The position numbers and the translations under genes were made by a program. This document shows, piece after piece, positions 27,928 to 51,705 of a stretch of 64,000 bases of DNA. This DNA comes from a virus, in the IMG/VR virus record IMGVR_UViG_3300021964_000012, positions 1 through 64,000 of that record; one strand, written 5' to 3'. The notes beneath the pieces were generated by a model. The model made no database searches. It had not been told where the DNA came from and was given only the letters and a program-made list of their open reading frames with translations. Numbering within the stretch: the first letter of the stretch is position 1; every line of letters begins with the position of its first letter.

Positions 27928-27942
27928 GCGATAACTACATTT

Positions 27943-34202: not shown

Positions 34203-35506
34203 ACAGGCCTGAACAAAAGCCTGAAACCTTATGCATGGCTCCGTGGACACACACCTATCTATCTCCGCAGACCGAACGCAGAATGTGTTGTGCTAGTCGT
34301 GAATCAGCACAGAGCTTTAAACAGTATATTGATACTGGATCGGGCACAGGAACATACAATCCGCAAACACTAGAAGAACATTGGAACGGCGATCATATGC
34401 GTAGTGTAAGAAGGCGTATGATGGCTGGTGAAAAACTAAGCGAGTGCGAAGTTTGTACAGATAAACTTCTTAATACTGATGTGTATAGAACTTACTTTTG
34501 GCACTTGTTTCAACACCGTTATGATGAGCTATGGACCAGTACCGACGACACTGGTTGGACCTCAATGAAGCCAATCAGTTGGGACTATAGATTTTCAAAC
34601 TTGTGTAACTTTAAATGTCGTACCTGTGGTGATATGCTTAGTTCAAGTTGGGAAACAGAACAACGTAAACACAACATGGTTAATTTAGACAACCCAAAAA
34701 ACAACTGGATGCGGCCAGAGGTTCGTAAAGAAATAAGCAAATTTCAGGATACACAAATTGAAAAAGAGTTTTCAGATGCAGTTGAAGAACATAGAATTGA
34801 AGAAATCTATTGGGTAGGTGGCGAACCACTGATGTATGAACAACACTGGCGATACATGAAACGCATAGTCGAACTTGGCGATGGGCCTGGATTGTATGCA
34901 CGTTATAATAGCAATCTTAGTAGAGTGAATTATAAAGGTCAAAATCTCTATAAAGATATACTTGCTAATATACGTGATTGGCAGATATGTGCCAGTATTG
35001 ATGGCACAGGTGCTATTGGTGAATATATAAGAACTGGACTAAACTATGATCAATTTGTAGATAATTTTAAACAAGGTTGTGATATCGCAACGCACAGACG
35101 GCAAATGCGTTTAGACTTTACTCTTACACTACCTGGATTGTTTGAAGTTGTACACATGCAACAATTAGCCGATAGATTAGGTGTTGACATCCTTGCTAAA
35201 GTTATTTTTACATTTACGCCAGATATTATTATGTCACCACTTGCATTGCCTCGTAAATTATTAGATCGCATGGTCAACCAACTAATTAACAATAATGTAT
35301 TAGGAACTGCATTGCAAGACGTGCTTGTCCAACTTAAAAATAGACCAACGATGGAAGAACAGTTTCCTGATTACATACAAGGTATGCAAGAAGGAAAAAG
35401 GCGTGTACTCAAATTAGAAGAGATTAGAAATGATAAGTTTACTATGAAAGATATACTCAGCAAAGATCAAGAAGTGTTAGATTGGTGGAATAGCATTGAT
35501 GCTTGA
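34196..35506 (+). CDS. radical SAM enzyme with N-terminal SPASM/twitch-like Cys motif (short subtype)
   Basis: 436 aa. LCMAPWTHTYLSPQTERRMCC...CEVCTDK, then CNFKCRTCGD and GGEPLM. Confidence 0.8.
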   Translation: MVDRPEQKPETLCMAPWTHTYLSPQTERRMCCASRESAQSFKQYIDTGSGTGTYNPQTLEEHWNGDHMRSVRRRMMAGEKLSECEVCTDKLLNTDVYRTYFWHLFQHRYDELWTSTDDTGWTSMKPISWDYRFSNLCNFKCRTCGDMLSSSWETEQRKHNMVNLDNPKNNWMRPEVRKEISKFQDTQIEKEFSDAVEEHRIEEIYWVGGEPLMYEQHWRYMKRIVELGDGPGLYARYNSNLSRVNYKGQNLYKDILANIRDWQICASIDGTGAIGEYIRTGLNYDQFVDNFKQGCDIATHRRQMRLDFTLTLPGLFEVVHMQQLADRLGVDILAKVIFTFTPDIIMSPLALPRKLLDRMVNQLINNNVLGTALQDVLVQLKNRPTMEEQFPDYIQGMQEGKRRVLKLEEIRNDKFTMKDILSKDQEVLDWWNSIDA

Positions 35507-36554
35507 TCGGGTTGAAATGCAATTGCGTGGGCCAAATGGTTTGTTGCCTGTATTCTTTGATGTGTATGATAATAGTTTAAGTCGTAAATGGTTAACTGCA
35601 TTTAATAATTTACTGGATAATAAATTACATCTTGAAAAAAACTATTGCTTTTTTGGATTTCCTGACAATGAACGTAACTTAGACTTTTTAGCCAGTGAAA
35701 TCAATAGAACTATTGCAGGGATAAATGGCAGCAACATTGACTATGTTATAAAAGATTATTTTTCTGCTGAAAATATGGTTGAAAAAAATTGGAGTGAACT
35801 TAACCAAGCAGTGAAAATTGATATAAATCATACAAAATTCAACCAGTTGCATTTATACTTTGAGGAAACACAAGGTGTGAGTGGTGCAATGAGCGAACAT
35901 TATACTAATGCTGATGCAGAAACACGTTGGTATATCAGGCAACTTAATTTATTATGTCATGAAGCAGAATGTCTTATAATAAGTTTAGGAAGAAAAGATG
36001 CGGCTCCGGAATGGATACGTCCTAGTAATGTTATGTGTTGGTTGCATGCTCCAAGATTTGTACTAGATGCTGAAGATTATAATCAATTTGGAGTTGACAC
36101 AATAGCAAGAGATCACGGTGGTGTATACGTTGGTGTTAACAAAGCAGTAGGAAAACATCATTATGAGGTTTTTAGCGACGAAGGCAGAGACAGTAGAATT
36201 GACGAGCTTACAACCACCACACTTAAACCACAAACAGAAGCTGCAGGTGATTTTGACATAGAATGGGGTAAAGCAACTTCTGACCAAAGTTTTATGCAAA
36301 CAAAACTAAATGATTTTAGAACATGGCTCAAGGCAAACAATTTTGATCCAGATGACCCTAGTTTGACAATAGGTCATCCAAAAATTGGACAGGTTGATTT
36401 AAAACACAGTTTTGGCACAGAGGATTTTTTGCAAGTGTTAGCAAAATTATCACAATATCTTGATGTATACAGTATCAAAACCAGTAAAAGTTATTGCGAA
36501 TACGATTACACATGGCATCAAAGTAAAGAACTACAAATACCTTTAATTGATTGA
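35499..36554 (+). CDS. hypothetical protein (island member)
   Basis: The track start 35496 is TTG. ATG 35499 gives an 8-nt overlap with the upstream stop. 351 aa, no motif recognised. Confidence 0.6.
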   Translation: MLDRVEMQLRGPNGLLPVFFDVYDNSLSRKWLTAFNNLLDNKLHLEKNYCFFGFPDNERNLDFLASEINRTIAGINGSNIDYVIKDYFSAENMVEKNWSELNQAVKIDINHTKFNQLHLYFEETQGVSGAMSEHYTNADAETRWYIRQLNLLCHEAECLIISLGRKDAAPEWIRPSNVMCWLHAPRFVLDAEDYNQFGVDTIARDHGGVYVGVNKAVGKHHYEVFSDEGRDSRIDELTTTTLKPQTEAAGDFDIEWGKATSDQSFMQTKLNDFRTWLKANNFDPDDPSLTIGHPKIGQVDLKHSFGTEDFLQVLAKLSQYLDVYSIKTSKSYCEYDYTWHQSKELQIPLID

Positions 36555-36579: not shown

Positions 36580-36682
36580 GATAAAATGGTTCAAGAATCT
36601 TATCAGCAAAATAAAACTAGAAATAAGATATCGTAAAAAATTAAAAGAACTGAGGAAAAGGGATCCTTTTATATACAAATGA
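36578..36682 (+). CDS. small basic ORF (34 aa), hypothetical
   Basis: MIKWFKNLISKIKLEIRYRKKLKELRKRDPFIYK. AAGGAG lies 7 nt upstream, and the stop overlaps the metK start (ATGA). Below the ORF-track size cutoff. It conflicts with use of the overlapping promoter candidate. Confidence 0.3.
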   Translation: MIKWFKNLISKIKLEIRYRKKLKELRKRDPFIYK

Positions 36683-37779
36683 GTTATATTTTCACATCAG
36701 AGTCAGTGAGCAAAGGCCATCCTGACAAAATAGCAGACCAAATATCAGATGCATTAGTCGATGCTGGTTTGCAAGCCGGTGACGAAACAACACGTGTTGC
36801 AGTTGAAACAATGGTAACAACAAATTATGTTGTACTAGCAGGAGAAGTAAAAAACTTCAACGTCACTGATGAACAAGTTGAGCAGATTATTAGAGACAAA
36901 GTTAAAGAGATCGGCTATGAGCAAGAAGGCTTTCATTGGGATAAACTTAAAGTTGATAACAAAACAATCAACAACCAGTTGCACTCTCAAAGTTCAGACA
37001 TTGCTCTAGGTACAGATGATTTTGGTGCAGGTGATCAAGGTATTATGTTTGGATATGCTTGCAATGACAATGAAGCAATGATGCCAGCACCTATCTATTA
37101 TTCACACGAACTACTAAAAGAACTAAATGACATGCGAGCAGATGGTTATCATTTTTTGCTACCAGATGCAAAGAGTCAAGTTAGTGTTGAATATGAAGGC
37201 GGAAAAGTAAAACGTATTGATCAAGTTGTTATAAGTCATCAACACAAAGAAGGTTTTCAACATAGTGTTATAGCACCTTTCAAAACCGCAGTAGAAAAAG
37301 TACTAGGCAATTTAATAGATGACAATACAGTATTTCATTTTAATCCTACTGGCAAATTTGTTATTGGTGGACCCGATGGTGACACTGGACTTACTGGTCG
37401 TAAAATTATTGTTGATACCTATGGTGGTTTTGCTCCTCACGGTGGTGGGGCATTTAGTGGAAAAGATCCTACTAAGGTAGACCGTAGTGCGGCCTATATG
37501 GCTCGTTGGTTGGCAAAGAATGTAGTTGCAGACGATATGGCTGACTGGTGTCAAATACAATTAAGTTATGCTATTGGCGTAAAAGAACCTACCAGCATCT
37601 ATGTAGATTCAAATGGACACAACAGAAGTATACAAAAGTTTATCAGAGACAATATTGATCTTACGCCAAAAGGTATAATTGATAGATTTGATCTTTTTAA
37701 ATTTTATGAATACAGTGCAAATTGCACATACGGACACTTTGGCAACAAAGATGTTCCTTGGGAAAAGGTAGGCTGGTAA
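36679..37779 (+). CDS. metK: S-adenosylmethionine synthetase
   Basis: 366 aa. FTSESVSKGHPDKIADQISDALVDA, GAGDQGIMFGYA and GGGAFSGKDPTKVDRSAAYMARW are canonical MetK motifs. Confidence 0.95.
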   Translation: MSYIFTSESVSKGHPDKIADQISDALVDAGLQAGDETTRVAVETMVTTNYVVLAGEVKNFNVTDEQVEQIIRDKVKEIGYEQEGFHWDKLKVDNKTINNQLHSQSSDIALGTDDFGAGDQGIMFGYACNDNEAMMPAPIYYSHELLKELNDMRADGYHFLLPDAKSQVSVEYEGGKVKRIDQVVISHQHKEGFQHSVIAPFKTAVEKVLGNLIDDNTVFHFNPTGKFVIGGPDGDTGLTGRKIIVDTYGGFAPHGGGAFSGKDPTKVDRSAAYMARWLAKNVVADDMADWCQIQLSYAIGVKEPTSIYVDSNGHNRSIQKFIRDNIDLTPKGIIDRFDLFKFYEYSANCTYGHFGNKDVPWEKVGW

Positions 37780-37889: not shown

Positions 37890-39395
37890 ATGAGAATACT
37901 AGGAGTTAGTGCAGGATTCCACGATGCCGCTCTTACTGTGGTACACAATCACAGAATACTGTTTGCAGGTCATGCTGAACGATATAGCAAAAAGAAAAAC
38001 GATCCTACTATTCCTCAAAGTCTTCAAGAACACGTTCTTAAATATGGACCTTTTGACATGATAGTCTACTATGAAAAGCCATATCTAAGACAACTGCGTA
38101 AAATTAAAAGTGGCGAAAATTGGGGAGGTGCTTGGCGTACACGTACCGAACTCGTACGTACAATTCCTTATATAATGGAAAACACCAAAGCAGAAATAAG
38201 CAGTGTTGGACATCATCTATCGCATGCGGCCGCAGGCTTTCAAACATCACCATTCGATGATGCAACAGTAGTTGTTATTGATGCAATAGGTGAGTCGGAT
38301 ACTATAAGCATATACCACGCCTACTACAATGGTGCATGTTTAGCAGGTGAACATGCTAAGGCAAATTACAAACTATTATACAAACAAACCTATCCACACA
38401 GTATTGGTATGTTCTACAGTGCAGTTACACAACGTTGTGGACTGAAGCCAATGGACGAAGAGTACATCACAATGGGCATGGCCGCATATGGGGATGCCGA
38501 CAAGGCATACAAAACATTAAAACGTGCAACTGTACAATTCGCAGATATTCCACTGTTTAAAGAAAACCTACACATAGGTATTGATGATGTTGAGTTTGCA
38601 CCTGATGTTACTGCTGAAGACATAGCTGCCGCAGGACAACAGTTATGCGAAGAAATGGTTATGGCTGTAATGCGTAGGGCAAAGGCCATTGGCACTAGTA
38701 AAAATCTAGTGTACATGGGAGGAGTTGCACTTAACTGTGTGATCAATCGTCGATTGGGTGAACTGTTTAACAAAATATGGATAATGCCCAACCCAGGAGA
38801 TGCAGGAAGCAGTTTGGGAGCCGCGGCCTACACATATGGTAGAGACATAAACTTTACAACACCATACTTGGGCTCAAATATAGCAGGTGAATATCCAGTG
38901 GATGAACTGTTAAAAGAATTAGAAACAAATCAAATTGTTGGAGTCGCAAATGGACGTGCAGAATTTGGTCCAAGAGCGTTAGGTAACAGAAGTTTACTAG
39001 CCGATCCGCGTGGACGAAATATCAAGGATCGAGTGAATGAGATAAAACGTAGACAAAAGTTTAGACCGTTTGCTCCTGTGATACTTGAAGAACATGTGCA
39101 TGACTATTTTGTAATGCCTCTTTATCAACCCACAAGTCGCTACATGCAGGTAGTAGCACGTTGCACAAAGCCAGATAAGTTTCCTGCTATTATACACGTA
39201 GATGGCACATCAAGAGTACAAACAGTTCCTGACAATGATAGTGGTATAAGACGGTTGTTGAGTGCGTGGTATAAAAAAACCGGTTGTCCTATGTTGTTGA
39301 ATACCAGTTTAAACATAAGAGGCGAGCCAATGGTTGATGATAGATTTGATGCTAATCGCTTTCAAAAAGAGTATGGAGTAACTGTATGCAGTTAG
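37890..39395 (+). CDS. carbamoyltransferase, NodU/CmcH/TobZ family
   Basis: 501 aa. MRILGVSAGFHDAALTVVHNHRILFAGHAERYSKKKND matches the family N-terminus (ILG.s...HD.aa.lv..g.i..a..EER.sR.K.D). Confidence 0.85.
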   Translation: MRILGVSAGFHDAALTVVHNHRILFAGHAERYSKKKNDPTIPQSLQEHVLKYGPFDMIVYYEKPYLRQLRKIKSGENWGGAWRTRTELVRTIPYIMENTKAEISSVGHHLSHAAAGFQTSPFDDATVVVIDAIGESDTISIYHAYYNGACLAGEHAKANYKLLYKQTYPHSIGMFYSAVTQRCGLKPMDEEYITMGMAAYGDADKAYKTLKRATVQFADIPLFKENLHIGIDDVEFAPDVTAEDIAAAGQQLCEEMVMAVMRRAKAIGTSKNLVYMGGVALNCVINRRLGELFNKIWIMPNPGDAGSSLGAAAYTYGRDINFTTPYLGSNIAGEYPVDELLKELETNQIVGVANGRAEFGPRALGNRSLLADPRGRNIKDRVNEIKRRQKFRPFAPVILEEHVHDYFVMPLYQPTSRYMQVVARCTKPDKFPAIIHVDGTSRVQTVPDNDSGIRRLLSAWYKKTGCPMLLNTSLNIRGEPMVDDRFDANRFQKEYGVTVCS

Positions 39396-40228
39396 AACAC
39401 ACACGAACAAGATATCATCGAAACTTTGCCTATTGGAAAAATGACGAAGTTATTGGAAAAAATCTTAGAGAGTATGGCGAATATCAGCAAAAAGAAATTG
39501 ATCTATTAGTTGGTTTATTAAACAGTGTAAATAGCAAACAAAAAGTGGTTTGGGACATTGGTGCCAACATAGGAGTTCATACTATGGCATTTTCTAAACA
39601 TAGTACTTTTGTTTGCAGTTGGGAAGCAAATCCACAAAACTTCAAACTACTACAAATGAATACACAAGGAAAACTTGCTCCAAATGTAAAAGTACACAAT
39701 GTTGCTATTAGCAATGGTAAAAAAGACACAATACAAATACAAGACTTTGATCAGTCTAAGTCTAGTAACAAAGGTGAATTATCAATTGTAGAAAAAGGTG
39801 GAGTAGAAATTTCAGCAAGAAGCATCGACAGTTATATGATGAATTATCCTCTTCCTAGTTTGATAAAAATTGATGTAGAAGGTCATGAACTTGAAGTACT
39901 GCAAGGTGCACTTGTAATGCTAAAAACAGTAAAACCAATATTGTATTTTGAAACTGCTGATAAAGTGAGTTATGCAGAACATATAACATTTCTTAAAGAT
40001 CTTGAATATCGCATGTGGTGGTTTGCATGTCCTAATTTTAATAAAAATAATTATAATAAAAATGACAATAATACCTGGGGTAGAAGTGTTATCTGTAGTA
40101 TACTCGCAATACACAAGGATGTGGTTGGATTAAATACTATAGAATTGCAAGAAGTAATTGATGCCGACGATCATTGGTTAAAGATGGATTGGGATTACGA
40201 TACAGGACTTACAAGAGCAATAGAATGA
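39386..40228 (+). CDS. FkbM-family SAM-dependent methyltransferase
   Basis: 280 aa. VVWDIGANIGVHTMAFS and LIKIDVEGHELEVLQGA are FkbM hallmarks. Confidence 0.75.
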   Translation: MQLEHTRTRYHRNFAYWKNDEVIGKNLREYGEYQQKEIDLLVGLLNSVNSKQKVVWDIGANIGVHTMAFSKHSTFVCSWEANPQNFKLLQMNTQGKLAPNVKVHNVAISNGKKDTIQIQDFDQSKSSNKGELSIVEKGGVEISARSIDSYMMNYPLPSLIKIDVEGHELEVLQGALVMLKTVKPILYFETADKVSYAEHITFLKDLEYRMWWFACPNFNKNNYNKNDNNTWGRSVICSILAIHKDVVGLNTIELQEVIDADDHWLKMDWDYDTGLTRAIE

Positions 40229-40539
40229 CCAAAGAAAACGATTTAAGACAACGTGTAATAGAATCACTTCAAACAGTATTTGATCCTGAGATGCCCAGTA
40301 TAAGTGTTTACGATTTAGGTTTAATCTATAAGATAGAGATCAAAGGTGACTGGGTTGGCATAGAACATACACTAACTAGTATGGCATGTCCTTTTGCAGA
40401 TCAAATTTGTGCCGATATAGAACATGCAGTTATTAGTACACCTGGCGTGCGTGCTATTGATAGACAATTGGTATTTGAACCTATTTTTACAATAGAAATG
40501 GTTCCTGAAGAAACCAAACTAATAATGGGCTGGTACTAA
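40225..40539 (+). CDS. DUF59 / SufT-PaaD-like Fe-S cluster assembly protein
   Basis: Start moved to ATG 40225 (ATGA overlap). LRQRVIESLQTVFDPEMPSISVYDLGLIYKIEI...TLTSMACPFAD fits the DUF59 pattern, including the conserved Cys. Confidence 0.7.
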   Translation: MTKENDLRQRVIESLQTVFDPEMPSISVYDLGLIYKIEIKGDWVGIEHTLTSMACPFADQICADIEHAVISTPGVRAIDRQLVFEPIFTIEMVPEETKLIMGWY

Positions 40540-40607
40540 TGGATACAAGAATGATTTTTGCCTTACTTGCATTGCCGTTATTATCATACATTGGTTACTA
40601 TGTTGGT

Positions 40608-41297
40608 TTAGAACTTTGGTGCTATGTTTACGGGATTATCTATCCAATTGTATAATTCTTCCGCTATCTTTTCATGACCAAGTTCACTTGGATGACCATC
40701 ACCTGAAATAAAGTTGTCATTTGTATAGCTTATTTGTGTAAGGTTTCCAATGGTACCGGGGACTAATTCTCCTGATTTTCCATTGGCAGCAAGTAGCTCC
40801 ATTGCATTTTCTTTAGCATTTTTGTAAAAACGCGATTTGTCAATTTCTGGCACCAGTGTCGGATGCTGCCAACCAAGCAGATAGGTGTCTCGAATATGGT
40901 ATTTGGTGCAAAGATTTTGTAAAATATACAAGGTGTTGTTAAGGTGCCATTCACCTAGTTTATTTGTGTATACCAATCTATAATAGAGTTTATCTCTATC
41001 GTTTTGTGGATGCATTTCGATTGCCTTACCACTTTCATCAAGTGCTATTTGTCTTTCTAAAGCAGTGATAAAAAATATTGCACTATAGGTATGGTCTTTT
41101 TGATAGTCATTCTCAAGGAATTTTCTTAATTGAAATAGCATATGATGTACACTGCTTGAACCTTGACTAAGATCAATTAATTCGCAATTGAGTCTTCTTG
41201 CTAGTATACCTGCATATATTTTTTCTGGCGGATATAGTCCTCCAATTGCCTGACCAGTGGCCCAACTGTCGCCAAAGTTTAGTAGATAGTGTGTCAA
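40608..41297 (-). CDS. SGNH/GDSL hydrolase (esterase / O-acyl hydrolase)
   Basis: 229 aa, TTG start in a TTGA overlap. Block I NFGDSWATG lies near the N-terminus and block V GDGHPSELGH near the C-terminus. Confidence 0.7.
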   Translation of the reverse strand: MTHYLLNFGDSWATGQAIGGLYPPEKIYAGILARRLNCELIDLSQGSSSVHHMLFQLRKFLENDYQKDHTYSAIFFITALERQIALDESGKAIEMHPQNDRDKLYYRLVYTNKLGEWHLNNTLYILQNLCTKYHIRDTYLLGWQHPTLVPEIDKSRFYKNAKENAMELLAANGKSGELVPGTIGNLTQISYTNDNFISGDGHPSELGHEKIAEELYNWIDNPVNIAPKF

Positions 41298-42325
41298 AGA
41301 TAGGTTTCCAATTCACCTTTACGTCTAATGTCTTGTGTACAACAACTAACGCCACCGTCCCAAAAGTAGCTGTGTCTAAGTTCTGAAATAATTGGGTTTA
41401 TACGATGCTTTTCACAGAAATCAAATACCTGTTTATTGTAGGCACTGAATATAACATTCTCTTCGTCTAGTACTAAGCAGTTTACATCAAATACAGTATC
41501 GCTTACATACCCAACCCATTCTTTGAGATAGGTATCAACAAATTTTGTAAACTCAGGTGTAGGAGTTTGTCCTTGTACATACCAAGCACCATTGAAGTTT
41601 TCTTCTTTGAATTTACCTACTGCCATTGCATGCCATATTGTGCTAGATTCAAGTTTACTAACTTCCCAACCTGGAAAGTCTGAGTCTAGGTCCAATTGGT
41701 CGTCCCATTTACTACTCAATATCACACCAGGCTTTAGAATTGCAAATACTGCATCGCCATGTCCATCTGTGATTGCTTCATGAAAACGATATCGACTGTC
41801 TAAACAATTTTCTTGTATCCAACGACTTTGATCTGGTTTAAGATAATCACTATTATCAAAGAATATATCGGTCCCACAACGTACTATACAACTTGCACTT
41901 GCACCGGCTACAACACAATCTGGATCATGTGCTAAAAACTCGCCATGAGGATTAATCACTGCATCACCATATTCAGCACAAATATCATCTAATTCAAGTA
42001 CTCTGAGAACACGTAACAGTTTGTCACCTAAGGTGATTTGCCAATCTCTTGGCGTTAAAGGCGGCAACGGTGCACCATTGTCTTTTATATTGAAATATTG
42101 AAAATCTTCTTTGCTAATCAGACCAGGACGTTTAACAAGTGCACCATATTGCTCGCAGGTCTTTTGTAAATTATCTAAGTCTTCATTTGTTTCATCTAAT
42201 ATCTGCCCTAATTGATCTCGTACTGTAGAGTTGTTAATAAAATCAAAATAATCTGGAGTGTATGCTCTACCTACTATAACTTCTTCTAGAGGTTGCCAAC
42301 TGGTGTAACTATTTACTTTGGACAT
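41294..42325 (-). CDS. amidinotransferase, StrB1 / glycine amidinotransferase (AGAT) family
   Basis: 343 aa. N-terminal VNSYTSWQPLEEVIVG (StrB1: VHNEWDPLEEVIVG) and C-terminal FWDGGVSCCTQDIRRKGELETYL (StrB1: LGGGFHCATLDVRRTGALETYQF), including the catalytic Cys position. Confidence 0.85.
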   Translation of the reverse strand: MSKVNSYTSWQPLEEVIVGRAYTPDYFDFINNSTVRDQLGQILDETNEDLDNLQKTCEQYGALVKRPGLISKEDFQYFNIKDNGAPLPPLTPRDWQITLGDKLLRVLRVLELDDICAEYGDAVINPHGEFLAHDPDCVVAGASASCIVRCGTDIFFDNSDYLKPDQSRWIQENCLDSRYRFHEAITDGHGDAVFAILKPGVILSSKWDDQLDLDSDFPGWEVSKLESSTIWHAMAVGKFKEENFNGAWYVQGQTPTPEFTKFVDTYLKEWVGYVSDTVFDVNCLVLDEENVIFSAYNKQVFDFCEKHRINPIISELRHSYFWDGGVSCCTQDIRRKGELETYL

Positions 42326-43200
42326 ATTAATATATCATTGCTTTCTTTGTTTAAGAACAATTGTTGATTATGTATGAGATCATCTTTGCAATCCACATAC
42401 ATACTGTGCGTCTTTTTTGATTTTGCAATTCTACACATTTCTGTACATACTGCCTTCCAACGTTCAGTTGCATCTTCAATCTCATCATATGAATGATCAA
42501 CTACATGATCAAATGTTTTATATCCCATTTCACGTAATTGAGTTACTGACCCCATTGCCCCTGCTAAGACAAATGGTTGACAGTTTTTAATTGCTCTAAA
42601 AACTTTTTCAGTTAATCTGACAGGACCGTTGAGATCACTTTCTATAACAAAATTAAAGTAAGCATCACTGTGATGCAGTCCTACTGTGTATTTCATGTCT
42701 GCATGTTCGTCTGGTGTCAATAAGTCACAATGAAAAGGAGCCATTTTTAAAAAAAATTCTGTATGATGTTTTAGACTTCCTAAGTTGCTAGTATCAATTG
42801 GGTTTATATCATCTTCCACAGTGATTCGATTGTTATATCCAAAGTATCCTTTCTTGTGTAAACCTTTACTCCATAATCTTGCCATTGTGTATGCACGCCA
42901 TTGTCTGTGTGTGCGGACAAGTGCAGTAAAATTCTTGCTCCGTTCTTGAGTATGAAATACAGTAGGCATACTTCTATTACGATGGCGGTAAAGCAGTTCA
43001 TCGCTACACGTATAGGTAATACCTGCGAGATCACGACTTTTAGTGGATTTTTCGATAAAATGTAAATTTTCTGCCTTAAAACCTGCTCGTACAGCATCAG
43101 CACTAACATTTTTTACTAATAAATTTTCTGGTAATAAAAAATAAAGATTTGTAATGTTTTTAAACATAATAGTTTCAGCTAGATCTGTTATCAAATCCAT
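42313..43200 (-). CDS. putative glycosyltransferase, TEK-motif family
   Basis: 295 aa. FVIESDLNGPVRLTEKVFRAIKNCQPFVLAGAMGSVTQLREMGYKTFDHVVDHSYDEIED. Confidence 0.45.
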   Translation of the reverse strand: MDLITDLAETIMFKNITNLYFLLPENLLVKNVSADAVRAGFKAENLHFIEKSTKSRDLAGITYTCSDELLYRHRNRSMPTVFHTQERSKNFTALVRTHRQWRAYTMARLWSKGLHKKGYFGYNNRITVEDDINPIDTSNLGSLKHHTEFFLKMAPFHCDLLTPDEHADMKYTVGLHHSDAYFNFVIESDLNGPVRLTEKVFRAIKNCQPFVLAGAMGSVTQLREMGYKTFDHVVDHSYDEIEDATERWKAVCTEMCRIAKSKKTHSMYVDCKDDLIHNQQLFLNKESNDILICPK

Positions 43201-44249
43201 TTTGCCATCATTCCTTGTAGTTCATTCCATAAGAGTTTTTCAAAATCTGCACTGTAAAACCAATTGTAGTTGTGCTCTACAATGCTATTTACTGCGGTTT
43301 GCAAGGTGGTCTTTTCTTTTTGACTCATATTATTAATGTCTTGTAACAGTTTGCCTATCTCATATGTGCGAACTGAATCATCTGCTTCATCGTATGATTC
43401 GTCCCAAAATTCACTAAATGTTTTAAAACCATATCTACGCAAATACTCTAAGCTACCTTTGCAACTCTGTATTATAAAAGGTTGTTGCATTACAATTGGT
43501 TTGAAAGATTTTTCTGTTAGATGATTTTTACGTCCTCGATATACTGTTTCAGTAACTATGTGTATCAGACTATTGTTTGCTTGTTCCCATAAATCAATTT
43601 GATGGCTCTTTGCCGCATAACCTGACCCGTTATCTATCATTAAGGGTAGTCGAACCTGAGGACAATCTAAATCATACTTTACACATAATAATTGTAAACT
43701 TTGTCCTTCGTATGGACATACGTCTGGAAATGATATTAAATTTTTATCAAGTAAATCTCGCCCAACAAACTGTTGAAGCATTTCAATACGATGTTTACGT
43801 TCTCCACCAATTATGTTGTTAGGACAAAGAAAAGTATTATAAGGCTTGCGTTCTGAAAATTTTTGTGCTATACTAGTTCTATTATAACCTCGATACCAAT
43901 CAAGTGCAGCCCAGCCATGAAAGAAATAGTAGTCCATTTCAAGACCATAAGTATCTTTGGCCCAAGAAGCATCTTCGCTGTTGTATTCGCTCGTAACAAG
44001 TCTACATTTGTTTGTATGCAAATAAAGTGGTTTGAACTGGTCAATAAATGGTATAAATCTATTACGATAAATTGGTTCTTGATCCCACATTATAATTCTA
44101 TTATTAGGAACGCCATGTACTGCCGGCTTGTTACAAATATCCTTAAAATCTGTACTACCAAATGGGTCAAACCAATGGAGTCCTGTACTGGGTATGTTTT
44201 TAACAACTGGTACAAAAACACCATCGTAAATTTCATCAATTCTAATCAT
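43191..44249 (-). CDS. putative glycosyltransferase, TEK-motif family
   Basis: 352 aa. IVTETVYRGRKNHLTEKSFKPIVMQQPFIIQSCKGSLEYLRRYGFKTFSEFWDESYDEADD. Its ATG (44249-44247) overlaps the ATG of the divergent gene (44248-44250). Confidence 0.45.
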   Translation of the reverse strand: MIRIDEIYDGVFVPVVKNIPSTGLHWFDPFGSTDFKDICNKPAVHGVPNNRIIMWDQEPIYRNRFIPFIDQFKPLYLHTNKCRLVTSEYNSEDASWAKDTYGLEMDYYFFHGWAALDWYRGYNRTSIAQKFSERKPYNTFLCPNNIIGGERKHRIEMLQQFVGRDLLDKNLISFPDVCPYEGQSLQLLCVKYDLDCPQVRLPLMIDNGSGYAAKSHQIDLWEQANNSLIHIVTETVYRGRKNHLTEKSFKPIVMQQPFIIQSCKGSLEYLRRYGFKTFSEFWDESYDEADDSVRTYEIGKLLQDINNMSQKEKTTLQTAVNSIVEHNYNWFYSADFEKLLWNELQGMMAKWI

Positions 44250-46236
44250 GTTTGATAAATGTTACTCATACAATAAAGATTCTCTTGCACAGTGCAAGAC
44301 TAGGTACTTATGGGTACTAAATAAGCACTGTGATTATTCTAATTTTGACTTTGCCTGGGAGCCGGCTCCCTGGGAAAAAGATTTTAGACATGCTTTTGGA
44401 TCACAGTGGCAAAAGGATTCTGGTACATATCTTGTTCCAAAACATGGGTATACCGAAACAAAATACAATCAAGAACAAACAGTGACACGATTACCTACAC
44501 AGGATAATTGGGATAGCACAGAATTTGAATTTGACTATTCATGGCACCCTGATCCAACAGAGCCAGATTTTATCTATCAATTTGGCACACAATGGCAAAA
44601 AACAGGCGGCCCAAGGTACGTGATTCCTGGTGCTACAAACATAAAATATGTAGATAGTCCTCGCATTAATAAAACATCAGTTGATTTACATTGGGTTGTA
44701 CCTGAAGCAAATATCGAAAACTTTGATTATACATGGCATCCTGACAACACTGAGAAACCTTTCATTTATCAATTTGGCACACAACATCAAAAAACAGGTG
44801 GGCCACGATATGAGGTACCAGGAGCAATCGAAGTCAAGTATGTAGGAGATATTACCACAAAAGTAAAAGCTGTTGCTTCAGGCGTAGTGCTTATTAAACA
44901 TCTTAACAAAGACTTTGTTTATCAAGGTACAATTCCTATTTTAAGTACTACTAGATTTATATCAAACTATCTTGACACACTAATACGTGTTTTGAAAAAG
45001 CTAAATGGTCATGAGTATGTTTGGATAATAAGCGACCTATGCGATTATGAAAACTTTGACTTTAGTTGGCATCCTGAACTATGGCAACACAGCATGTTAC
45101 ATGTATTTCCTAGTAACGAACAAGAGTTTGGTGATACGTTTTTTATTAATGTAGAAAGTTTTTTGGAAAATGCAAAAAACATCAAATTGTTGGAATGGTA
45201 CAATCCTTTAAATTTTGTTCCTTATACAGTAAAACGTAAGGATTGTCCTCAGATAAAGTATGATTCAGACAGTGTAGTTGATGCAGTCTGGAGTCATAAT
45301 TTTCAAGAGCCAGTGGTACAATTTTACAGGTATAAACCAGAGAAACAAGTTACCATTAGTTTATGGCAAGAAAGACTCAGAACAGTTGTTCCTTTAGCAA
45401 AAGGAAGTGAGTGTGTGTTAGTACCTAAAGATGCAAAAAATTATATTAATACACAAGTATATGATTATAAATGGATAGATAAAAAACACAAACCTAAACA
45501 AGCTAGACCACTTGATATTGTTTTTATTAGCAATGATGAAAGCAATGCCGAAAAAAATTGGGAACATCTAATTAAAGTACATAAAGGTCAAAATCGTATT
45601 GTCAGAGTAGATGGAGTAAAAGGCAGAGCAGAAGCATATCGTGCTAGTTTAGAAGCAAGTAACACCGACTGGGCATTTTGTGTGTTCGCTAAACTTGAAG
45701 TGAACGCAGATTTTGATTGGACGTGGCAACCAGATAGGTTACAACAAGCAAAGCACTATATATTTCATGCTAAAAATCCTGTAAATGGATTGGTATATGG
45801 ACACATGGCAATGATTGCATATAATAAAAAACTTGTTGCAGTGAACCAATCTCAAGGGTTAGACTTTACACTTGATCAAGAACATGAAGTTGTGCCACTT
45901 CTCAGTGGTATTGCTCGTTATGCTGATGACCCATGGATTGCCTGGCGTAGTGCGTTTCGTGAATGTTTAAAGCTCAAAAATAGTTTGCCCAACATAGAAT
46001 CCAACTACCGTCTTAAACAGTGGTTAAAAGCAGATACAACGTCTGCTGTAGCTGGTTGGAGTGCAATTGGTGCACAAGATGCAGTTGATTACTATGACGC
46101 AGTTGAAGGCAATTTTGCAAAACTGCGTCTAACATACGAATGGGATTGGCTGGCAGAATACCTATTCAAGCAACACAATCTAACACCTGATCAATTATGT
46201 ACTCAACTTCAAGATCAGTCAATTCAGGGTATATAG
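44248..46236 (+). CDS. multi-repeat protein (five FD[FY]xW.P modules) with C-terminal GT-A-like domain
   Basis: 662 aa. Modules: NFDFAWEPAPWEKDFRHAFGSQWQK, FEFDYSWHPDPTEPDFIYQFGTQWQKTGGPRY, NFDYTWHPDNTEKPFIYQFGTQHQKTGGPRY, NFDFSWHPELWQHSMLHVF and DFDWTWQPDRLQQAKHYIF. The C-terminal half aligns with 24037-24966. Confidence 0.6.
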   Translation: MFDKCYSYNKDSLAQCKTRYLWVLNKHCDYSNFDFAWEPAPWEKDFRHAFGSQWQKDSGTYLVPKHGYTETKYNQEQTVTRLPTQDNWDSTEFEFDYSWHPDPTEPDFIYQFGTQWQKTGGPRYVIPGATNIKYVDSPRINKTSVDLHWVVPEANIENFDYTWHPDNTEKPFIYQFGTQHQKTGGPRYEVPGAIEVKYVGDITTKVKAVASGVVLIKHLNKDFVYQGTIPILSTTRFISNYLDTLIRVLKKLNGHEYVWIISDLCDYENFDFSWHPELWQHSMLHVFPSNEQEFGDTFFINVESFLENAKNIKLLEWYNPLNFVPYTVKRKDCPQIKYDSDSVVDAVWSHNFQEPVVQFYRYKPEKQVTISLWQERLRTVVPLAKGSECVLVPKDAKNYINTQVYDYKWIDKKHKPKQARPLDIVFISNDESNAEKNWEHLIKVHKGQNRIVRVDGVKGRAEAYRASLEASNTDWAFCVFAKLEVNADFDWTWQPDRLQQAKHYIFHAKNPVNGLVYGHMAMIAYNKKLVAVNQSQGLDFTLDQEHEVVPLLSGIARYADDPWIAWRSAFRECLKLKNSLPNIESNYRLKQWLKADTTSAVAGWSAIGAQDAVDYYDAVEGNFAKLRLTYEWDWLAEYLFKQHNLTPDQLCTQLQDQSIQGI

Positions 46237-47260
46237 GTAAACTAAGCACACGTCGTGAAAGGCTTGTACTGCTGGCAAGCAATGGTTTTACACCATGAAA
46301 TGATCCTATTTCGTTAATACCATATTCATAGTGTACTTTGGAATCTATACCTGCTTGTTGTAAATACTCTTTTATTTTATTTCTATCTGTATTGCAATCA
46401 ATGACAAATTTATGAAAACAATGTTCCTGTAAATTAGAACTATCAATTAAGCATCTAATATCTGACTTTTCGTTTAATCTTTCTATCCAATAAAGACCAA
46501 TTGTTTGTCTGCGTTCTTGCCATTCGTCTATGTATTTGGTTTTAACAAGCATTGTTGCACAGTCTATTTCACTCATACGACTGTTTGTTCCACCAGTAAC
46601 ATGGGCCGACCCATTGGCTCTGTACCATCTTACAAATCTATCTATACTTACAGTGTTGGTAAGCACGGCTCCGCCGTTGGCATAGTTTGCAAGATTCTTT
46701 GTAGGATCAAAACTTATTGCACTGGTGGAGATTCTTTTACAATCCCAACTGAGCCAATGCTGAGCCGCATCTTCTACCAAGATCCAATCGTGTTCTGCAA
46801 CCAAATCTCTAAAACGTTGTGTTTGATAATTCTTTAGACTGTTGCCATACAATCCTACCAAACACACTGCCATTGTGTTGTAGTGATGTGGTTGTATACT
46901 GTCAATATCCAGCATGCCATATGAGTCAGTATCAGCTACCACAACTTCCCATCCTGCTGAAATCCATGAGTTTGCAGTTGCACGATAGGTTAAGTTCGGA
47001 ACGATAACCTGTGGCTTATTGAGATTAAGTTGTTTGTAATGATAACGTGCTATTGCTTCAAGTGCAACTGTACCTGAACCAATTGTAATGGCATGATCAA
47101 CGTTGTTTCGTTTTGCTAACCATGATTCAAATTCTTGTGTGTAGTTGCCATTCATCAGTTGGCCACTACGCAATACTATATCAATGGTATCGAGAACTTC
47201 TGATCTAAGGTTATTATACTGTTTTTTTAGTCCAGTAAACGGAATTTCTAAGCCACTCAT
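46166..47260 (-). CDS. DegT/DnrJ/EryC1/StrS-family PLP-dependent sugar aminotransferase
   Basis: 364 aa. IPFTGLKKQYNNLRSEVLDTIDIVLRSGQLMNGNYTQEFESWLA, GSGTVALEA, SFDPTKNL (PLP Lys), and SLPIYPELTDLEVEYIIDQV at the C-terminus. Confidence 0.85.
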   Translation of the reverse strand: MSGLEIPFTGLKKQYNNLRSEVLDTIDIVLRSGQLMNGNYTQEFESWLAKRNNVDHAITIGSGTVALEAIARYHYKQLNLNKPQVIVPNLTYRATANSWISAGWEVVVADTDSYGMLDIDSIQPHHYNTMAVCLVGLYGNSLKNYQTQRFRDLVAEHDWILVEDAAQHWLSWDCKRISTSAISFDPTKNLANYANGGAVLTNTVSIDRFVRWYRANGSAHVTGGTNSRMSEIDCATMLVKTKYIDEWQERRQTIGLYWIERLNEKSDIRCLIDSSNLQEHCFHKFVIDCNTDRNKIKEYLQQAGIDSKVHYEYGINEIGSFHGVKPLLASSTSLSRRVLSLPIYPELTDLEVEYIIDQVLDCVA

Positions 47261-48257
47261 GGTATAGTTTGATGCCTTCTTCTAAGTTGATTTTTGGATC
47301 AAAGTTCAAATCCGTTTTTGCTTTATCAATGTTTAATGTGCCTCTACTAGGCATATTTGCATCTCGATCATTGATCTCAACTGTGCCTTTGCCTACAATT
47401 TTAACAACTGCGTCTGCGGCTTCTTTTATTGTTTTAGCATCACCTTTAGTTAGATGATAGATGCCAGTTTTACCCTTCAGCAATGCTAAAATCATTCCTT
47501 CGGCTAGATCATCAACATAGGTAAAATCCAATCTCTCATCTTCACCATTTACTGATAGTGTTCTATCTGCTTTAGCATTTAGAATAAATTTTCCTATAAC
47601 TCTATCACAGTTATCCAATGGGCCATAAACTGCACTTGGTCGAACTGTTACATAATCAAGGTTGTGTTGTTTATTAAAGTTTTCTACCAATTTTTCACCA
47701 GCATGTTTCCATATAGCATAACTGCCTTTTGGATCTGGAGTGTGTGTTTCATCAGCAGGAAACGAAAAGTCGCCAAGTACCATGCTTGAACTTACATACA
47801 ATAACCTTTTGATGTTGTGTCTTGCACTGTTTTCCAATATGTTAGCAAGTCCCTGACACATTGTATGTGCAGCTTCTACTGGGTTTTCACTTGCCAACTT
47901 TTCATTTGGAAAACTAGCAAGATGTACAACATAGTCTGGTTTCAATTTTAAGAAAATATCATTTACCAATTCAATTTCAGCAACATCAATTTTGTGAATC
48001 ATTGTGTCATCATCAAATTTTGCCAGTCTTTCATTGTATAGATATTCTAATTCACTTTTGTCTAATAGTCCGTAAGTGGTTAGTGCATCAATTACTTCGA
48101 CTCGATGATTTTGTTTTTGCAACTGTTCAACAACCTTGTGCCCAATGAAGCCAAGACCTCCTGTCACAAGTATTCTTTTTTGTTCAACCTTTACTGCGGT
48201 TTGTTTAGGTTGTCTTGTGATTGATTTTTTCTTTTTTCTATTCTTTGCCATGAGCAT
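47214..48257 (-). CDS. NAD-dependent sugar epimerase/dehydratase (extended SDR) with basic N-terminal extension
   Basis: ILVTGGLGFIGHKV Rossmann motif, SSS...YAIWK (YxxxK). N-terminal MLMAKNRKKKKSITRQPKQTAVKVEQKR precedes the fold. ATG 48251 is an equally possible start. Confidence 0.8.
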   Translation of the reverse strand: MLMAKNRKKKKSITRQPKQTAVKVEQKRILVTGGLGFIGHKVVEQLQKQNHRVEVIDALTTYGLLDKSELEYLYNERLAKFDDDTMIHKIDVAEIELVNDIFLKLKPDYVVHLASFPNEKLASENPVEAAHTMCQGLANILENSARHNIKRLLYVSSSMVLGDFSFPADETHTPDPKGSYAIWKHAGEKLVENFNKQHNLDYVTVRPSAVYGPLDNCDRVIGKFILNAKADRTLSVNGEDERLDFTYVDDLAEGMILALLKGKTGIYHLTKGDAKTIKEAADAVVKIVGKGTVEINDRDANMPSRGTLNIDKAKTDLNFDPKINLEEGIKLYHEWLRNSVYWTKKTV

Positions 48258-50279: not shown

Positions 50280-50453
50280 TTATTTTTCCATAAAGCAGGC
50301 AGTTTCTGGATCATTCCATTCTAATTCATACTTGCTACGTATAAACCAATCTCTTGGACATGCCCATTCTGGTGCATCACTATAGTCATGATTGGTTACT
50401 TCTTCTAAACAAGTGATTTCTTCGAGATCTAAATGGTCAGGATCATGAATCAT
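50280..50453 (-). CDS. small hypothetical protein (57 aa)
   Basis: Only the part of track ORF 50280-50675 downstream of the VWA gene is non-overlapping. Internal ATG 50453 overlaps the VWA stop by 11 nt. Confidence 0.3.
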   Translation of the reverse strand: MIHDPDHLDLEEITCLEEVTNHDYSDAPEWACPRDWFIRSKYELEWNDPETACFMEK

Positions 50454-51705
50454 CTTCGTATAGTGCCCATGTACCAAAGGGCGGATTAGGATTCTTATCG
50501 CCATGTATAATAAAAACTGTATCACAGTAGTTAGGATCGCCCCATGAATCAAATGGATAACCATCTGTAAACATAACCAATCTTTTAGGATCAATACCTT
50601 CTTCTTTAAGGTAGTCAAACACACAATCAAAGTCAGTACCACCACCACCTTTGATCTCGTACTCGTCGATAGCATCTATGTTATCGTCAGTAAATGTTTG
50701 TACATTATAAACACTAGTATCAAAACAACATATAGTAACACGGAACTGCCCATACTCTTCCATAATTCCTTTGACTTCACTCATAAAGTCTCTACCTTGC
50801 TCTGCGCCAATTGAACCACTCATGTCTAATGCACAAAAGATATCAACATATTCGTCGTTGTCCATACCTGGAAGTATAGCATCCATGTGCCAGCCCTTAC
50901 GATGCATACGTTTAAATGTGTAGTCAGACTTGATAGTTGACTGCATCTGCATACGTAACAGTTCTCTCCAGTTTAATTTAGGCTCGGTGAGTTGTGCAAC
51001 AATACGTTTTACCCCTGCTGGTACGTTGCCAGGATCTGATGCCTGTGCGGCACTCAGCATGGCTTCTTTTATTTCTTCTTTAATCTTTTCACGTTCTTCT
51101 TTTGAATATTTTGTAGGTCCTTTACCTTCTTCGTCATTGTCGCCATCACCTTCTTTACCATCCAAGTGCTGATCAATCAACTGTTTTACAAGCTCATCCA
51201 TATCGATCTTATCAGCATTCTCATAAAGGTCGTCATATACTTCTTCTGAACTCCAACCTTCATACTTAACATCATACAAACATGGAACAGTCTTAATAAA
51301 CTCGCCTACTCTGTGTTTTTGTAGATCAGCATTTACACAATAGTCAGCAGCTATGTTGTGCAACTGAGGATCTCTGTCACCACGTCTACCAAAATGATCA
51401 TATACACAATGCAATACTTCATGTCCAAAAAGAAATTCAACTTCTTTAGGACGTAGCATTTTAATAAACTTTGAATTGTAGTAGAAGTTTCTACCATCAG
51501 TTGCGGCAGTTGCACACCATTCATCAGCATTGACTAGTTTCAATCTAGTAGCAAGGTTACCAAAAAAACTAGCACGTAACAACATACCAACACGGGCAGT
51601 AATTAATATTTCACGTACTTCTCTATCACGTGCAGGATCCATTGGACCTAGTATATCTTTAAATTTGTCTGCTAAGTCTTTGTTTACTGTTGTATCTTGC
51701 GACAT
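50443..51705 (-). CDS. VWA-domain protein with N-terminal HExxH metallopeptidase-like domain (DUF2201 / CobT-like)
   Basis: 420 aa. HEVLHCVYDHF (HExxH) in the N-terminal half, MIDAS-type DMSGSIG in the C-terminal half. Confidence 0.75.
   Translation of the reverse strand: MSQDTTVNKDLADKFKDILGPMDPARDREVREILITARVGMLLRASFFGNLATRLKLVNADEWCATAATDGRNFYYNSKFIKMLRPKEVEFLFGHEVLHCVYDHFGRRGDRDPQLHNIAADYCVNADLQKHRVGEFIKTVPCLYDVKYEGWSSEEVYDDLYENADKIDMDELVKQLIDQHLDGKEGDGDNDEEGKGPTKYSKEEREKIKEEIKEAMLSAAQASDPGNVPAGVKRIVAQLTEPKLNWRELLRMQMQSTIKSDYTFKRMHRKGWHMDAILPGMDNDEYVDIFCALDMSGSIGAEQGRDFMSEVKGIMEEYGQFRVTICCFDTSVYNVQTFTDDNIDAIDEYEIKGGGGTDFDCVFDYLKEEGIDPKRLVMFTDGYPFDSWGDPNYCDTVFIIHGDKNPNPPFGTWALYEDDS

Follow-up and report, generated by a model that had tools for sequence, protein, structure and literature searches.

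Results

The island and its genome

We analysed a 64,000-nucleotide stretch of viral DNA (positions 1 to 64,000 of IMG/VR record IMGVR_UViG_3300021964_000012; hereafter the window), in which an open reading frame (ORF) at 41294-42325, on the minus strand, encodes an amidinotransferase-like enzyme of a virus-dominated clade. The gene lies in an island of about 24 kb (approximately 24037-48257), which we delimited by Pfam, NCBIfam and PHROG scans together with two structure predictions. All proteins of the island are soluble, and they include six predicted glycosyltransferases (four GT-B-like and two GT-A-like) that an earlier, sequence-only reading of positions 37890-47260, part of the right-hand half of the island, had not recognised. 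That reading saw there a combination of enzymes resembling those of aminoglycoside pathways, which would either build a guanidinylated and carbamoylated sugar into a glycan or make a small aminoglycoside-like molecule during infection.

The source of the window is a marine jumbo myovirus. It carries genes for the gp25-like (1091-1471) and gp6-like (1522-4929) proteins of the baseplate wedge, the latter about 34% identical to its counterparts in Atu_ph07, Rak2/GAP32-type and other jumbo myoviruses, and marine metagenomes contain hundreds of close relatives of the window proteins, on contigs as long as 283-328 kb. The wedge genes are followed by a single ORF of 4490 amino acids (4933-18405, plus strand) and then by tail-fibre-like genes, about 3 kb after which the island begins; a ThyX gene abuts the island. 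No DNA near-identical to the island was found among 50,697 phage records.

The amidinotransferase-like protein

Matches in the PDB, by sequence and by profile, identified the 343-residue product of the ORF at 41294-42325. Searched with phmmer, it matched amidinotransferases only, namely AGAT (E = 6e-13), StrB1 (3e-11), SxtG (1e-9) and HsvA (8e-7), and a profile made from 33 sequences of its clade brought the same four enzymes to between 1e-33 and 5e-31, with both termini and the core covered. Nothing matched above the Pfam or NCBIfam thresholds, and the sole PHROG match was phrog_25854, annotated as function unknown. The sequence-only reading had matched the protein to StrB1/AGAT at both termini and, indeed, both of the peptides that it quoted are present. 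Its label of 'StrB1-type', however, was overstated, since the clade of this protein is a separate one, almost confined to viruses and without the aspartate of the catalytic triad, and by the clade profile the protein is no nearer to StrB1 than to AGAT, SxtG or HsvA.

The catalytic triad of human AGAT is Asp254-His303-Cys407 (PMC3684758). Cys328 (AGAT C407) and His189 (AGAT H303) are invariant in the 33-sequence alignment and in 114 of 114 tabulated proteins. Also invariant, across the 33 diverse clade members, are Asp94 of a PRD motif (AGAT D170) and Asp191 of an HxD motif (AGAT D305); D170 and D305 of AGAT reportedly hold the guanidinium group. The position of AGAT Asp254 is, however, occupied by Ser143 in the window protein, a placement on which the phmmer, hmmsearch and hhalign alignments concur, and the column varies within the clade (N, S, D, H, K and others). 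The Cys-His-Asp triad that the sequence-only reading had proposed to look for is thus present in its first two members and not in the third. A near-invariant histidine, His327, which precedes the nucleophile, is a serine in the window protein and its subclade. The position of AGAT Ser355 is a near-invariant Glu/Asp in the clade, and the substrate-binding segment differs in length; together these suggest that the substrates are probably unlike arginine and glycine.

In common with the AGAT family (human AGAT, StrB1, SxtG, CyrA/AoaA and HsvA) the protein has the N-terminal signature NSYxxWxPLxEVIVG and the C-terminal signature GGxxC.T.DxRR.G.L..Y, and keeps the nucleophilic cysteine, the catalytic histidine and the two guanidinium-binding aspartates. 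It differs from AGAT in being about 40-80 residues shorter and in its motif, which here reads FWDGGxHC. Because one defining feature of the family, the triad aspartate, fails, we call the protein amidinotransferase-like. These residues are consistent with a catalytically plausible guanidino-group-modifying enzyme that would have a different substrate pocket, and not with an ortholog of StrB1. Its gene overlaps the neighbouring genes by 4 and 13 bases, within a run of glycosyltransferase genes.

Distribution of the clade and its gene neighbourhoods

Searching 1.84 billion cluster representatives with HMMER gave 680 matches for the clade, the best 150 of which (50%-identity clusters; E of 4e-29 or better) score far above any characterised enzyme. 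By one peptide pattern, IMG/VR holds at least 593 confirmed clade loci, whereas a non-exhaustive scan of 185,579 species genomes, again by one peptide pattern, found 15, all on contigs of metagenome-assembled genomes (MAGs), indicating that the clade is essentially viral. Judged by these searches, it is almost wholly viral or metagenomic and has no characterised member. In the literature on phage amidinotransferases, guanidino sugars and N-terminal twitch enzymes we found no functional study.

For neighbourhood statistics, all ORFs were clustered across 98 related loci. The amidinotransferase-like gene recurs with N-terminal-twitch (N-twitch) radical S-adenosylmethionine (SAM) genes in 25 loci and with the GT-B-like family of the island in 23, and its further recurrent partners are UDP-sugar dehydrogenase, cytidylyltransferase, GT1 and short-chain dehydrogenase/reductase (SDR) genes. 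Homologs in other phages sit amid glycosyltransferases, UDP-sugar dehydrogenases, cytidylyltransferases and KdsA/KdsB, and the association with glycosyltransferase, UDP-sugar dehydrogenase and radical SAM genes persists in distant loci, at 30-37% identity.

A neighbour-joining tree with gene context mapped onto it, for which ORF309 of the cultured Synechococcus phage S-SCSM2R served as canonical outgroup, resolved two groups. One, which we call canonical, keeps Asp254 and is always accompanied by a UDP-sugar dehydrogenase and a cupin-like protein, and in most cases by GT-B-like genes too; the larger one is the divergent clade to which the window protein belongs. Of the occurrences of the cupin-like family (12 related loci), 77% have an amidinotransferase no farther than 1.5 kb away. 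Two amidinotransferase genes, one canonical and one divergent, are found in each of the loci L027, L048, L055, L065, L071, L076 and L083, and these pairs recall StrB1/StrB2.

Some neighbourhoods are of another kind. In loci between L027 and L099 (for example L081:8721-9215, L094:7063-7494 and L079:9657-9989) we noted a compact cassette of the amidinotransferase-like gene and three small proteins, recurring in unrelated viral contigs: a DUF6875-like protein (36 loci, 97% within 1.5 kb), a protein like the C-terminal part of arginyl-tRNA-protein transferase (ATE_C-like; 26 loci, adjacent) and DUF6614 (20 loci, adjacent). The cassette is a recurrent module, possibly centred on arginine. In 10-11 loci, QueE-like and FolE genes stand beside the amidinotransferase-like gene. 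Hidden Markov models (HMMs) built from these other loci for QueE, FolE, PP-loop, cytidylyltransferase, ATE_C-like, DUF6875-like and DUF6614 proteins found none of them in the window, the one match being a weak, generic one to a radical SAM protein; a role in 7-deazaguanine synthesis was, therefore, rejected for this window. Four of the loci on MAG contigs (L009, L010, L012 and L018, labelled Bdellovibrio-like and Chloroflexota) are very rich in radical SAM genes, the amidinotransferase-like gene being surrounded by 3-5 N-twitch copies, by radical SAM enzymes of the SPASM and B12 types and by PP-loop ATPases; their DNA could be either cellular or mis-binned viral.

Predicted glycosyltransferases

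Since sequence searches of the PDB gave nothing meaningful for the GT-B-like family or for the family of a 662-residue protein, we turned to fold prediction for both. The AlphaFold2 model of the GT-B-like protein encoded at 43191-44249, minus strand (pLDDT 84, pTM 0.85), was matched by Foldseek in the PDB to FUT13 (GT10; E = 3e-4), LmbT, SenB, OtsA, the T4 alpha-glucosyltransferase AGT and TagF, and in BFVD to a mimivirus GT10 and to a fusion with UDP-glucose dehydrogenase. Three paralogs, at 25500-26510 and 28761-29819 on the plus strand and at 42313-43200 on the minus strand, were assigned to the same 'c4' family by clustering and alignment, and a TEK...PF motif is invariant in all four, none of which was recognised in the database scans. 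The family has 3435 metagenomic homologs and no tblastn match (E up to 1e-6) in the 50,697 cultured phage records. Going by the modelled member, it is an abundant, unannotated glycosyltransferase-like family of uncultured viruses.

The 662-residue protein (44248-46236, plus strand; AlphaFold2 pLDDT 79) is predicted to combine N-terminal beta-rich repeats with one or more GT-A-like domains, and Foldseek matched its model to GT-A transferases, among them the glycosyltransferase domains of LH3, and K4CP, WrtF, ThuS/SunS, ArnC and GtrB. The protein encoded at 24037-24966, plus strand, which has a DGD (DxD) motif and no Pfam match, is a paralog of its C-terminal domain (25% identity to residues 422-609; BLASTP E = 7e-11). 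The N-terminal half of the 662-residue protein consists of repeats of about 70 residues (FDFxWxPxPWE...FGxQWQKxxGxYLVP), and its homologs range from 570 to 1158 amino acids through variation in repeat number. The 3' end of its gene overlaps the convergent aminotransferase gene described below by 71 bases.

Carbamoyltransferase, aminotransferase and other tailoring enzymes

The ORF at 37890-39395, plus strand, encodes an O-carbamoyltransferase of the NodU/CmcH/TobZ family, as judged from Pfam (Carbam_trans_C, 1e-50; Carbam_trans_N, 4e-35), from phrog_1601 (7e-103), from its PDB matches (NovN at 2e-46, GdmN, and TobZ at 8e-33) and from an HHLSH...D motif. Its two domains, Kae1-like at the N-terminus and YrdC-like at the C-terminus, score 122 and 172 bits against Pfam cut-offs of 24 and 27, but the protein is far under the equivalog threshold for NodU (148 versus 1000 bits). 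The phage family phrog_1601, 'Nol-like carbamoyltransferase', is matched by 135 cultured phage records, mostly of cyanophages. At 46166-47260, minus strand, lies a DegT/DnrJ/EryC1 pyridoxal-phosphate-dependent sugar aminotransferase (Pfam 1e-53, 183 bits against a cut-off of 19.8), with its cofactor-binding lysine in SFDPTKN. It matches no family at equivalog level (PseC, 116 versus 423 bits); its top PDB match is 7b0d, an entry of the DegT family that is unidentified and bears the deposited name 'glutamine--scyllo-inositol transaminase', followed by DesV, QdtB and WbpE. Both enzymes had been named in the sequence-only reading and are confirmed here; the kinship that it drew with the aminoglycoside-pathway enzymes StrB1, TobZ and BtrN holds at the family level only.

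Two extended SDRs may supply the aminotransferase. The first, encoded at 47214-48257, minus strand, and translationally coupled to DegT, is like nucleoside diphosphate (NDP)-sugar epimerases and dehydratases (Epimerase 4e-45, GDP_Man_Dehyd 2e-38). Its best NCBIfam match is dTDP-glucose 4,6-dehydratase (2e-39, under the cut-off), and it keeps YxxxK, with SSSMVLGD in place of the D-E pair of dehydratases. The second, a short one at 27943-28776, plus strand, resembles GDP-fucose synthase or an epimerase-reductase (Pfam Epimerase 2e-31; NCBIfam Fcl 3e-22, under the cut-off). Further tailoring proteins are an FkbM-family methyltransferase (39386-40228, plus strand; Methyltransf_21, 4e-17), a small cupin-like or 2-oxoglutarate (2OG)-Fe(II)-oxygenase-like protein with an HxD...H pattern (24967-25503, plus strand; VHRD...HLH in its sequence) and an SGNH/GDSL-like hydrolase (40608-41297, minus strand), the last recognised by the motifs FGDSWATG and GDGHP, close to the N- and C-terminus respectively, and with no Pfam match.

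Radical SAM enzymes and probable support genes

Five N-twitch radical SAM proteins are encoded on the plus strand at 26473-27927, 29728-31170, 31154-32437, 32434-33639 and 34196-35506 (copies 1 to 5; 299, 297, 405, 342 and 283 bits against NF033640), all above the curated cut-off of this family (N_Twi_rSAM; 170 bits). The twitch-like radical SAM enzymes of the sequence-only reading are, therefore, real, but all lie at 26473-35506, outside the segment 37890-47260 in which it had grouped them. Each copy has CX3CX2C (at residue 158 in copy 1) plus an N-terminal C...C(C)...CxxC cluster, and in copy 3 a Pfam SPASM match (residues 33-98) precedes Radical_SAM (143-290). The CX3CX2C core and a second cysteine cluster for an auxiliary Fe-S centre are shared with twitch and SPASM enzymes such as BtrN and MoaA; the auxiliary domain is, however, N-terminal here and C-terminal in BtrN. 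A PDB sequence search with an N-twitch copy found no solved structure, and in the literature we found no characterised member of NF033640.

Interleaved with these genes is what looks like a self-contained support set: a PNP_UDP_1 nucleosidase like those acting on methylthioadenosine, S-adenosylhomocysteine (SAH) or 5'-deoxyadenosine (33636-34202, plus strand; PF01048, 2e-13), an S-adenosylmethionine synthetase, MetK (36679-37779, plus strand; all three Pfam MetK domains, 6e-58 to 4e-31), and a PaaD/SufT-like Fe-S cluster assembly protein (40174-40539, plus strand; FeS_assembly_P, 1e-15). The true start of the last ORF probably lies downstream of the listed TTG, its ortholog in a syntenic relative (L001) having 104 amino acids. 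Nishimura et al. (PMC5332604) described T4-like genomes of marine viruses in which paaD is joined by as many as 12 radical SAM genes.

Functions not found in the island

Pfam scans matched no cyclitol synthase (neither a DHQ_synthase-type 2-deoxy-scyllo-inosose synthase nor Inos-1-P-synthase) in any island ORF, a few small ORFs outside the island being unscanned, which bears out the caveat of the sequence-only reading that no inosose or inositol-phosphate synthase is recognisable. No ORF between 18 and 50 kb contains a hydrophobic 19-residue segment, so no Wzx, Wzy, WecA-type or exporter protein is encoded there. With no transmembrane-like segment in that interval, we saw neither a lipid-carrier initiating transferase nor the flippase and polymerase or ABC exporter that accompany it in O-antigen and capsule loci. 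As for self-resistance, the Pfam scans matched no phosphotransferase, acetyltransferase or rRNA methylase, and no transporter was found.

Relatives and cultured phages

The island is syntenic in relatives whose amidinotransferase-like proteins are 88% (L001-L003) or 73% (L020) identical to that of the window. L001 has an extra pair of DegT and radical SAM genes, and L020 a second amidinotransferase-like gene and a cytidylyltransferase; such gain and loss among syntenic relatives is typical of glycan loci. A conserved island protein (35496-36554, plus strand), which has no Pfam or PHROG match, is kept in all of these relatives. Amidinotransferase-like and carbamoyltransferase genes occur together again in L015, L056 and Marine virus AG-345-D19, in the last of which they are 2 kb apart.

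Among cultured phages, the cyanomyovirus S-SCSM2R encodes a member of the clade, ORF266, beside KdsA, KdsB and glycosyltransferases, and this protein has been detected in the virion proteome (PMC12801897). A second amidinotransferase of that phage, ORF309, is inside a block (ORF302-310) with glycosyltransferase, DegT-like, radical SAM and 2OG-oxygenase genes. S-SCSM2R is thus like the window in being a marine myovirus with glycosyltransferases, a DegT-like protein, a radical SAM enzyme and amidinotransferases, and its ORF308, a '2OG-Fe(II) oxygenase' directly upstream of ORF309, is a homolog of the window protein at 24967-25503. The two differ, however, in that ORF309 is canonical, keeping Asp254 and sharing about 20% of its residues with the window protein, and in that two stretches of S-SCSM2R (about 43 kb) have no annotated carbamoyltransferase, MetK, nucleosidase or Fe-S assembly gene and yielded no N-twitch copy. 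Moreover, S-SCSM2R is a T4-like cyanophage and the window comes from a Rak2/Atu_ph07-like jumbo phage. Other genes of S-SCSM2R were called 'antibiotic synthesis genes', their purpose being stated as unclear (PMC12801897).

The closest cultured homolog of the carbamoyltransferase, 44% identical, is that of the Ralstonia soil jumbo phage RsoM2USA. An N-twitch radical SAM protein of the same phage, RsoM2USA_202, is 51% identical to copy 2 of the island and, as its ortholog, lies 1.8 kb upstream of the carbamoyltransferase gene. The two genes (locus L102, 5811-7193 and 9001-10572), both annotated 'hypothetical', offer a tractable experimental system. All annotated neighbours in RsoM2USA and in Vibrio phage K566 are likewise 'hypothetical', adding little beyond co-occurrence. 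A paper on the 'moraphage' jumbo lineage proved apparently unrelated, since that lineage is described as distinct from the T4-group phages and none of these enzymes is mentioned.

Other features of the window

The 4490-residue ORF matches only FG-GAP repeats (at about residue 2490) and, weakly, CBM5/12; its product, presumably a giant protein of a fibre or attached to the baseplate, is a candidate target of glycosylation. Downstream of the island, a DUF2201 protein (putative metallopeptidase with a vWA-like part; 50443-51705) and a MoxR-like AAA ATPase (52863-53957), both on the minus strand and about 1.2 kb apart, form a conserved phage pair (phrog_1314 and phrog_1297).

Discussion

Viral glycosylation in the cytoplasm is well established for the capsid of chloroviruses, the fibrils of mimivirus and the virions of mycobacteriophages. 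Soluble viral glycosyltransferases, accompanied by the virus's own SDR, DegT and methyltransferase genes, are common to those systems and to the island, known here by its genes alone; lipid-carrier machinery is seen in neither, and a mimivirus GT10 is among the remote structural matches of the GT-B-like model. For the published systems this comparison draws on general background and on a study that PMC12619734 and PMC12801897 cite (Freeman et al. 2023).

The island encodes enzymes for sugar nucleotides and for tailoring beside six soluble glycosyltransferase-like proteins, and functions for a lipid carrier, export and cyclitol synthesis are absent, which fits assembly of an oligosaccharide in the cytoplasm on a soluble acceptor. 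The fibre genes adjoin the island and glycosylation of virions has precedent, making a virion protein the most plausible acceptor. That the island builds and heavily tailors an oligosaccharide in the host cytoplasm, attached to such an acceptor, is in our view an even call. A narrower proposal, which we regard as possible but rather doubtful, is that the viral clade consists of glycan or sugar amidinotransferases and that, with the carbamoyltransferase and the five N-twitch enzymes, it puts guanidino and carbamoyl sugars on the virion or on DNA. Of the two products put forward in the sequence-only reading, the guanidinylated, carbamoylated glycan fares better, with the glycosyltransferases, the SDRs, the FkbM and SGNH-like proteins and the contexts of homologs in its favour, while the guanidino sugar itself is unproven.

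In such a pathway, NDP-sugars of the host would be oxidised or epimerised by the two SDRs and then aminated by DegT, as the families of these enzymes and the overlap of the coupled SDR and DegT genes suggest. The GT-B-like and GT-A-like proteins, whose folds are predicted, would assemble the chain, and it might then be decorated by the O-carbamoyltransferase, dependent on carbamoyl phosphate and ATP, by the FkbM methyltransferase, by the SGNH protein as an esterase or acyltransferase, by the cupin-type oxygenase and by the N-twitch radical SAM enzymes. To keep the latter running, MetK would make SAM, the nucleosidase would clear 5'-deoxyadenosine or SAH, and the Fe-S protein may help to load the clusters. 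As for amidino transfer, the conserved residues suggest that Cys328 may take the amidino group from a guanidino donor, L-arginine by analogy, forming a covalent S-amidino intermediate, with His189 as acid/base and Asp94 and Asp191 holding the guanidinium. The group could then pass to an amine acceptor, possibly the amino sugar made by DegT. A guanidino-sugar product would be chemically reasonable and is, on this reasoning, plausible.

Several observations weigh against this reading. The serines at the positions of Asp254 (Ser143) and His327 leave room for altered or reduced activity of the amidinotransferase-like protein. HMM searches found no nucleotidyltransferase in the island, and the TM-scores of the Foldseek matches are modest, the GT-B-like model reaching 0.33-0.43 and the multidomain 662-residue protein less. 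Most members of the clade have no DegT gene within 6 kb, which suggests a different or broader acceptor, and many adjoin the small ATE_C-like, DUF6875-like and DUF6614 proteins or QueE/FolE; the common substrate of the clade may, therefore, not be a sugar. The acceptor of the glycan could be a virion protein, DNA or a small molecule, and the whole case is built on sequence.

The amidinotransferase-like enzyme could, accordingly, stand outside any sugar pathway and act on a polyamine (as does HsvA) or an amino acid, or as a guanidino hydrolase, its place in the island being incidental. HsvA matches as well as AGAT or StrB1, the altered pocket makes arginine and glycine improbable substrates, a nearby DegT is missing for most of the clade, and the S-SCSM2R member was found in virions, all of which would fit such a role. 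The overlap of the gene with its neighbours amid glycosyltransferase genes, however, and its recurrence with glycosyltransferase, UDP-sugar dehydrogenase and radical SAM genes even in the distant loci argue that the position is not incidental, and we consider this alternative unlikely.

Modification of the phage DNA itself with a tailored glycan or other bulky adduct, evading restriction in the manner of the T-even DNA glycosyltransferases, would suit a set of enzymes that are all soluble and cytoplasmic. The GT-B-like model resembles, among others, T4 alpha-glucosyltransferase (E 0.07-0.1), ThyX adjoins the island, genes for 7-deazaguanine synthesis (QueE-like and FolE) accompany the amidinotransferase-like gene elsewhere, and viral glycosyltransferases are reported to make DNA glycans of several sugars (Pyle et al. 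2024, cited in PMC12619734). However, GT10 and sugar or protein transferases match the predicted folds better; the QueE, FolE, cytidylyltransferase and PP-loop homologs are those that the HMM searches did not find in the window; and among the scanned ORFs we saw no homolog of a hydroxymethylase-type thymidylate synthase, no DNA transglycosylase and no base kinase, in a check that covered 64 kb of a genome of more than 200 kb. On balance DNA modification appears quite unlikely.

Finally, a diffusible aminoglycoside-like or nucleoside-antibiotic-like molecule, that is, a guanidinylated and carbamoylated pseudo-oligosaccharide made during infection, is improbable and gained no specific support: several of the enzymes do have natural-product enzymes as their nearest characterised relatives (NovN, GdmN, TobZ, StrB1, SxtG and DesV), the five radical SAM enzymes, with a supply of SAM of their own, look like a biosynthetic gene cluster, and analogous S-SCSM2R genes carry the 'antibiotic synthesis' label of their authors (PMC12801897), but the similarity is not specific to aminoglycoside enzymes, there are more glycosyltransferase-like proteins than known aminoglycoside pathways use, and no 2-deoxy-scyllo-inosose or inositol-phosphate synthase, exporter or other transporter, resistance gene, regulatory gene or membrane protein was found.

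The favoured reading, a tailored oligosaccharide on a soluble acceptor, describes a kind of system that is already known, since the literature describes glycan islands and carbamoyltransferases in phages and includes a phage 'amidinotransferase' annotation. What is new is the combination of enzymes, the self-contained support of the radical SAM enzymes, and how large, and how restricted to viruses, the amidinotransferase-like and GT-B-like families are. We know of no report of an amidinotransferase, a carbamoyltransferase or a multi-copy radical SAM set in the glycosylation systems of chloroviruses, mimivirus or mycobacteriophages and, to our knowledge, sugar chemistry of this sort, with guanidino and carbamoyl groups, has not been reported in viral or cellular glycans.

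Glycosylation by phages and giant viruses is known, but its chemistry has barely been explored. The tailoring set described here is unusually broad, with amidino, carbamoyl, methyl, amino, acyl or esterase, oxygenase and five radical SAM functions and its own SAM and Fe-S support, and it includes two uncharacterised families that are abundant in metagenomes, the amidinotransferase-like clade and the GT-B-like family. Two cultured phages make the question testable: S-SCSM2R, with its amidinotransferases amid glycosyltransferases, and RsoM2USA, with its pair of radical SAM and carbamoyltransferase genes. If a cationic guanidino glycan is indeed carried on virions or DNA, it would be new glycobiology, and it could bear on adsorption, particle stability and the evasion of host defences in abundant marine viruses.

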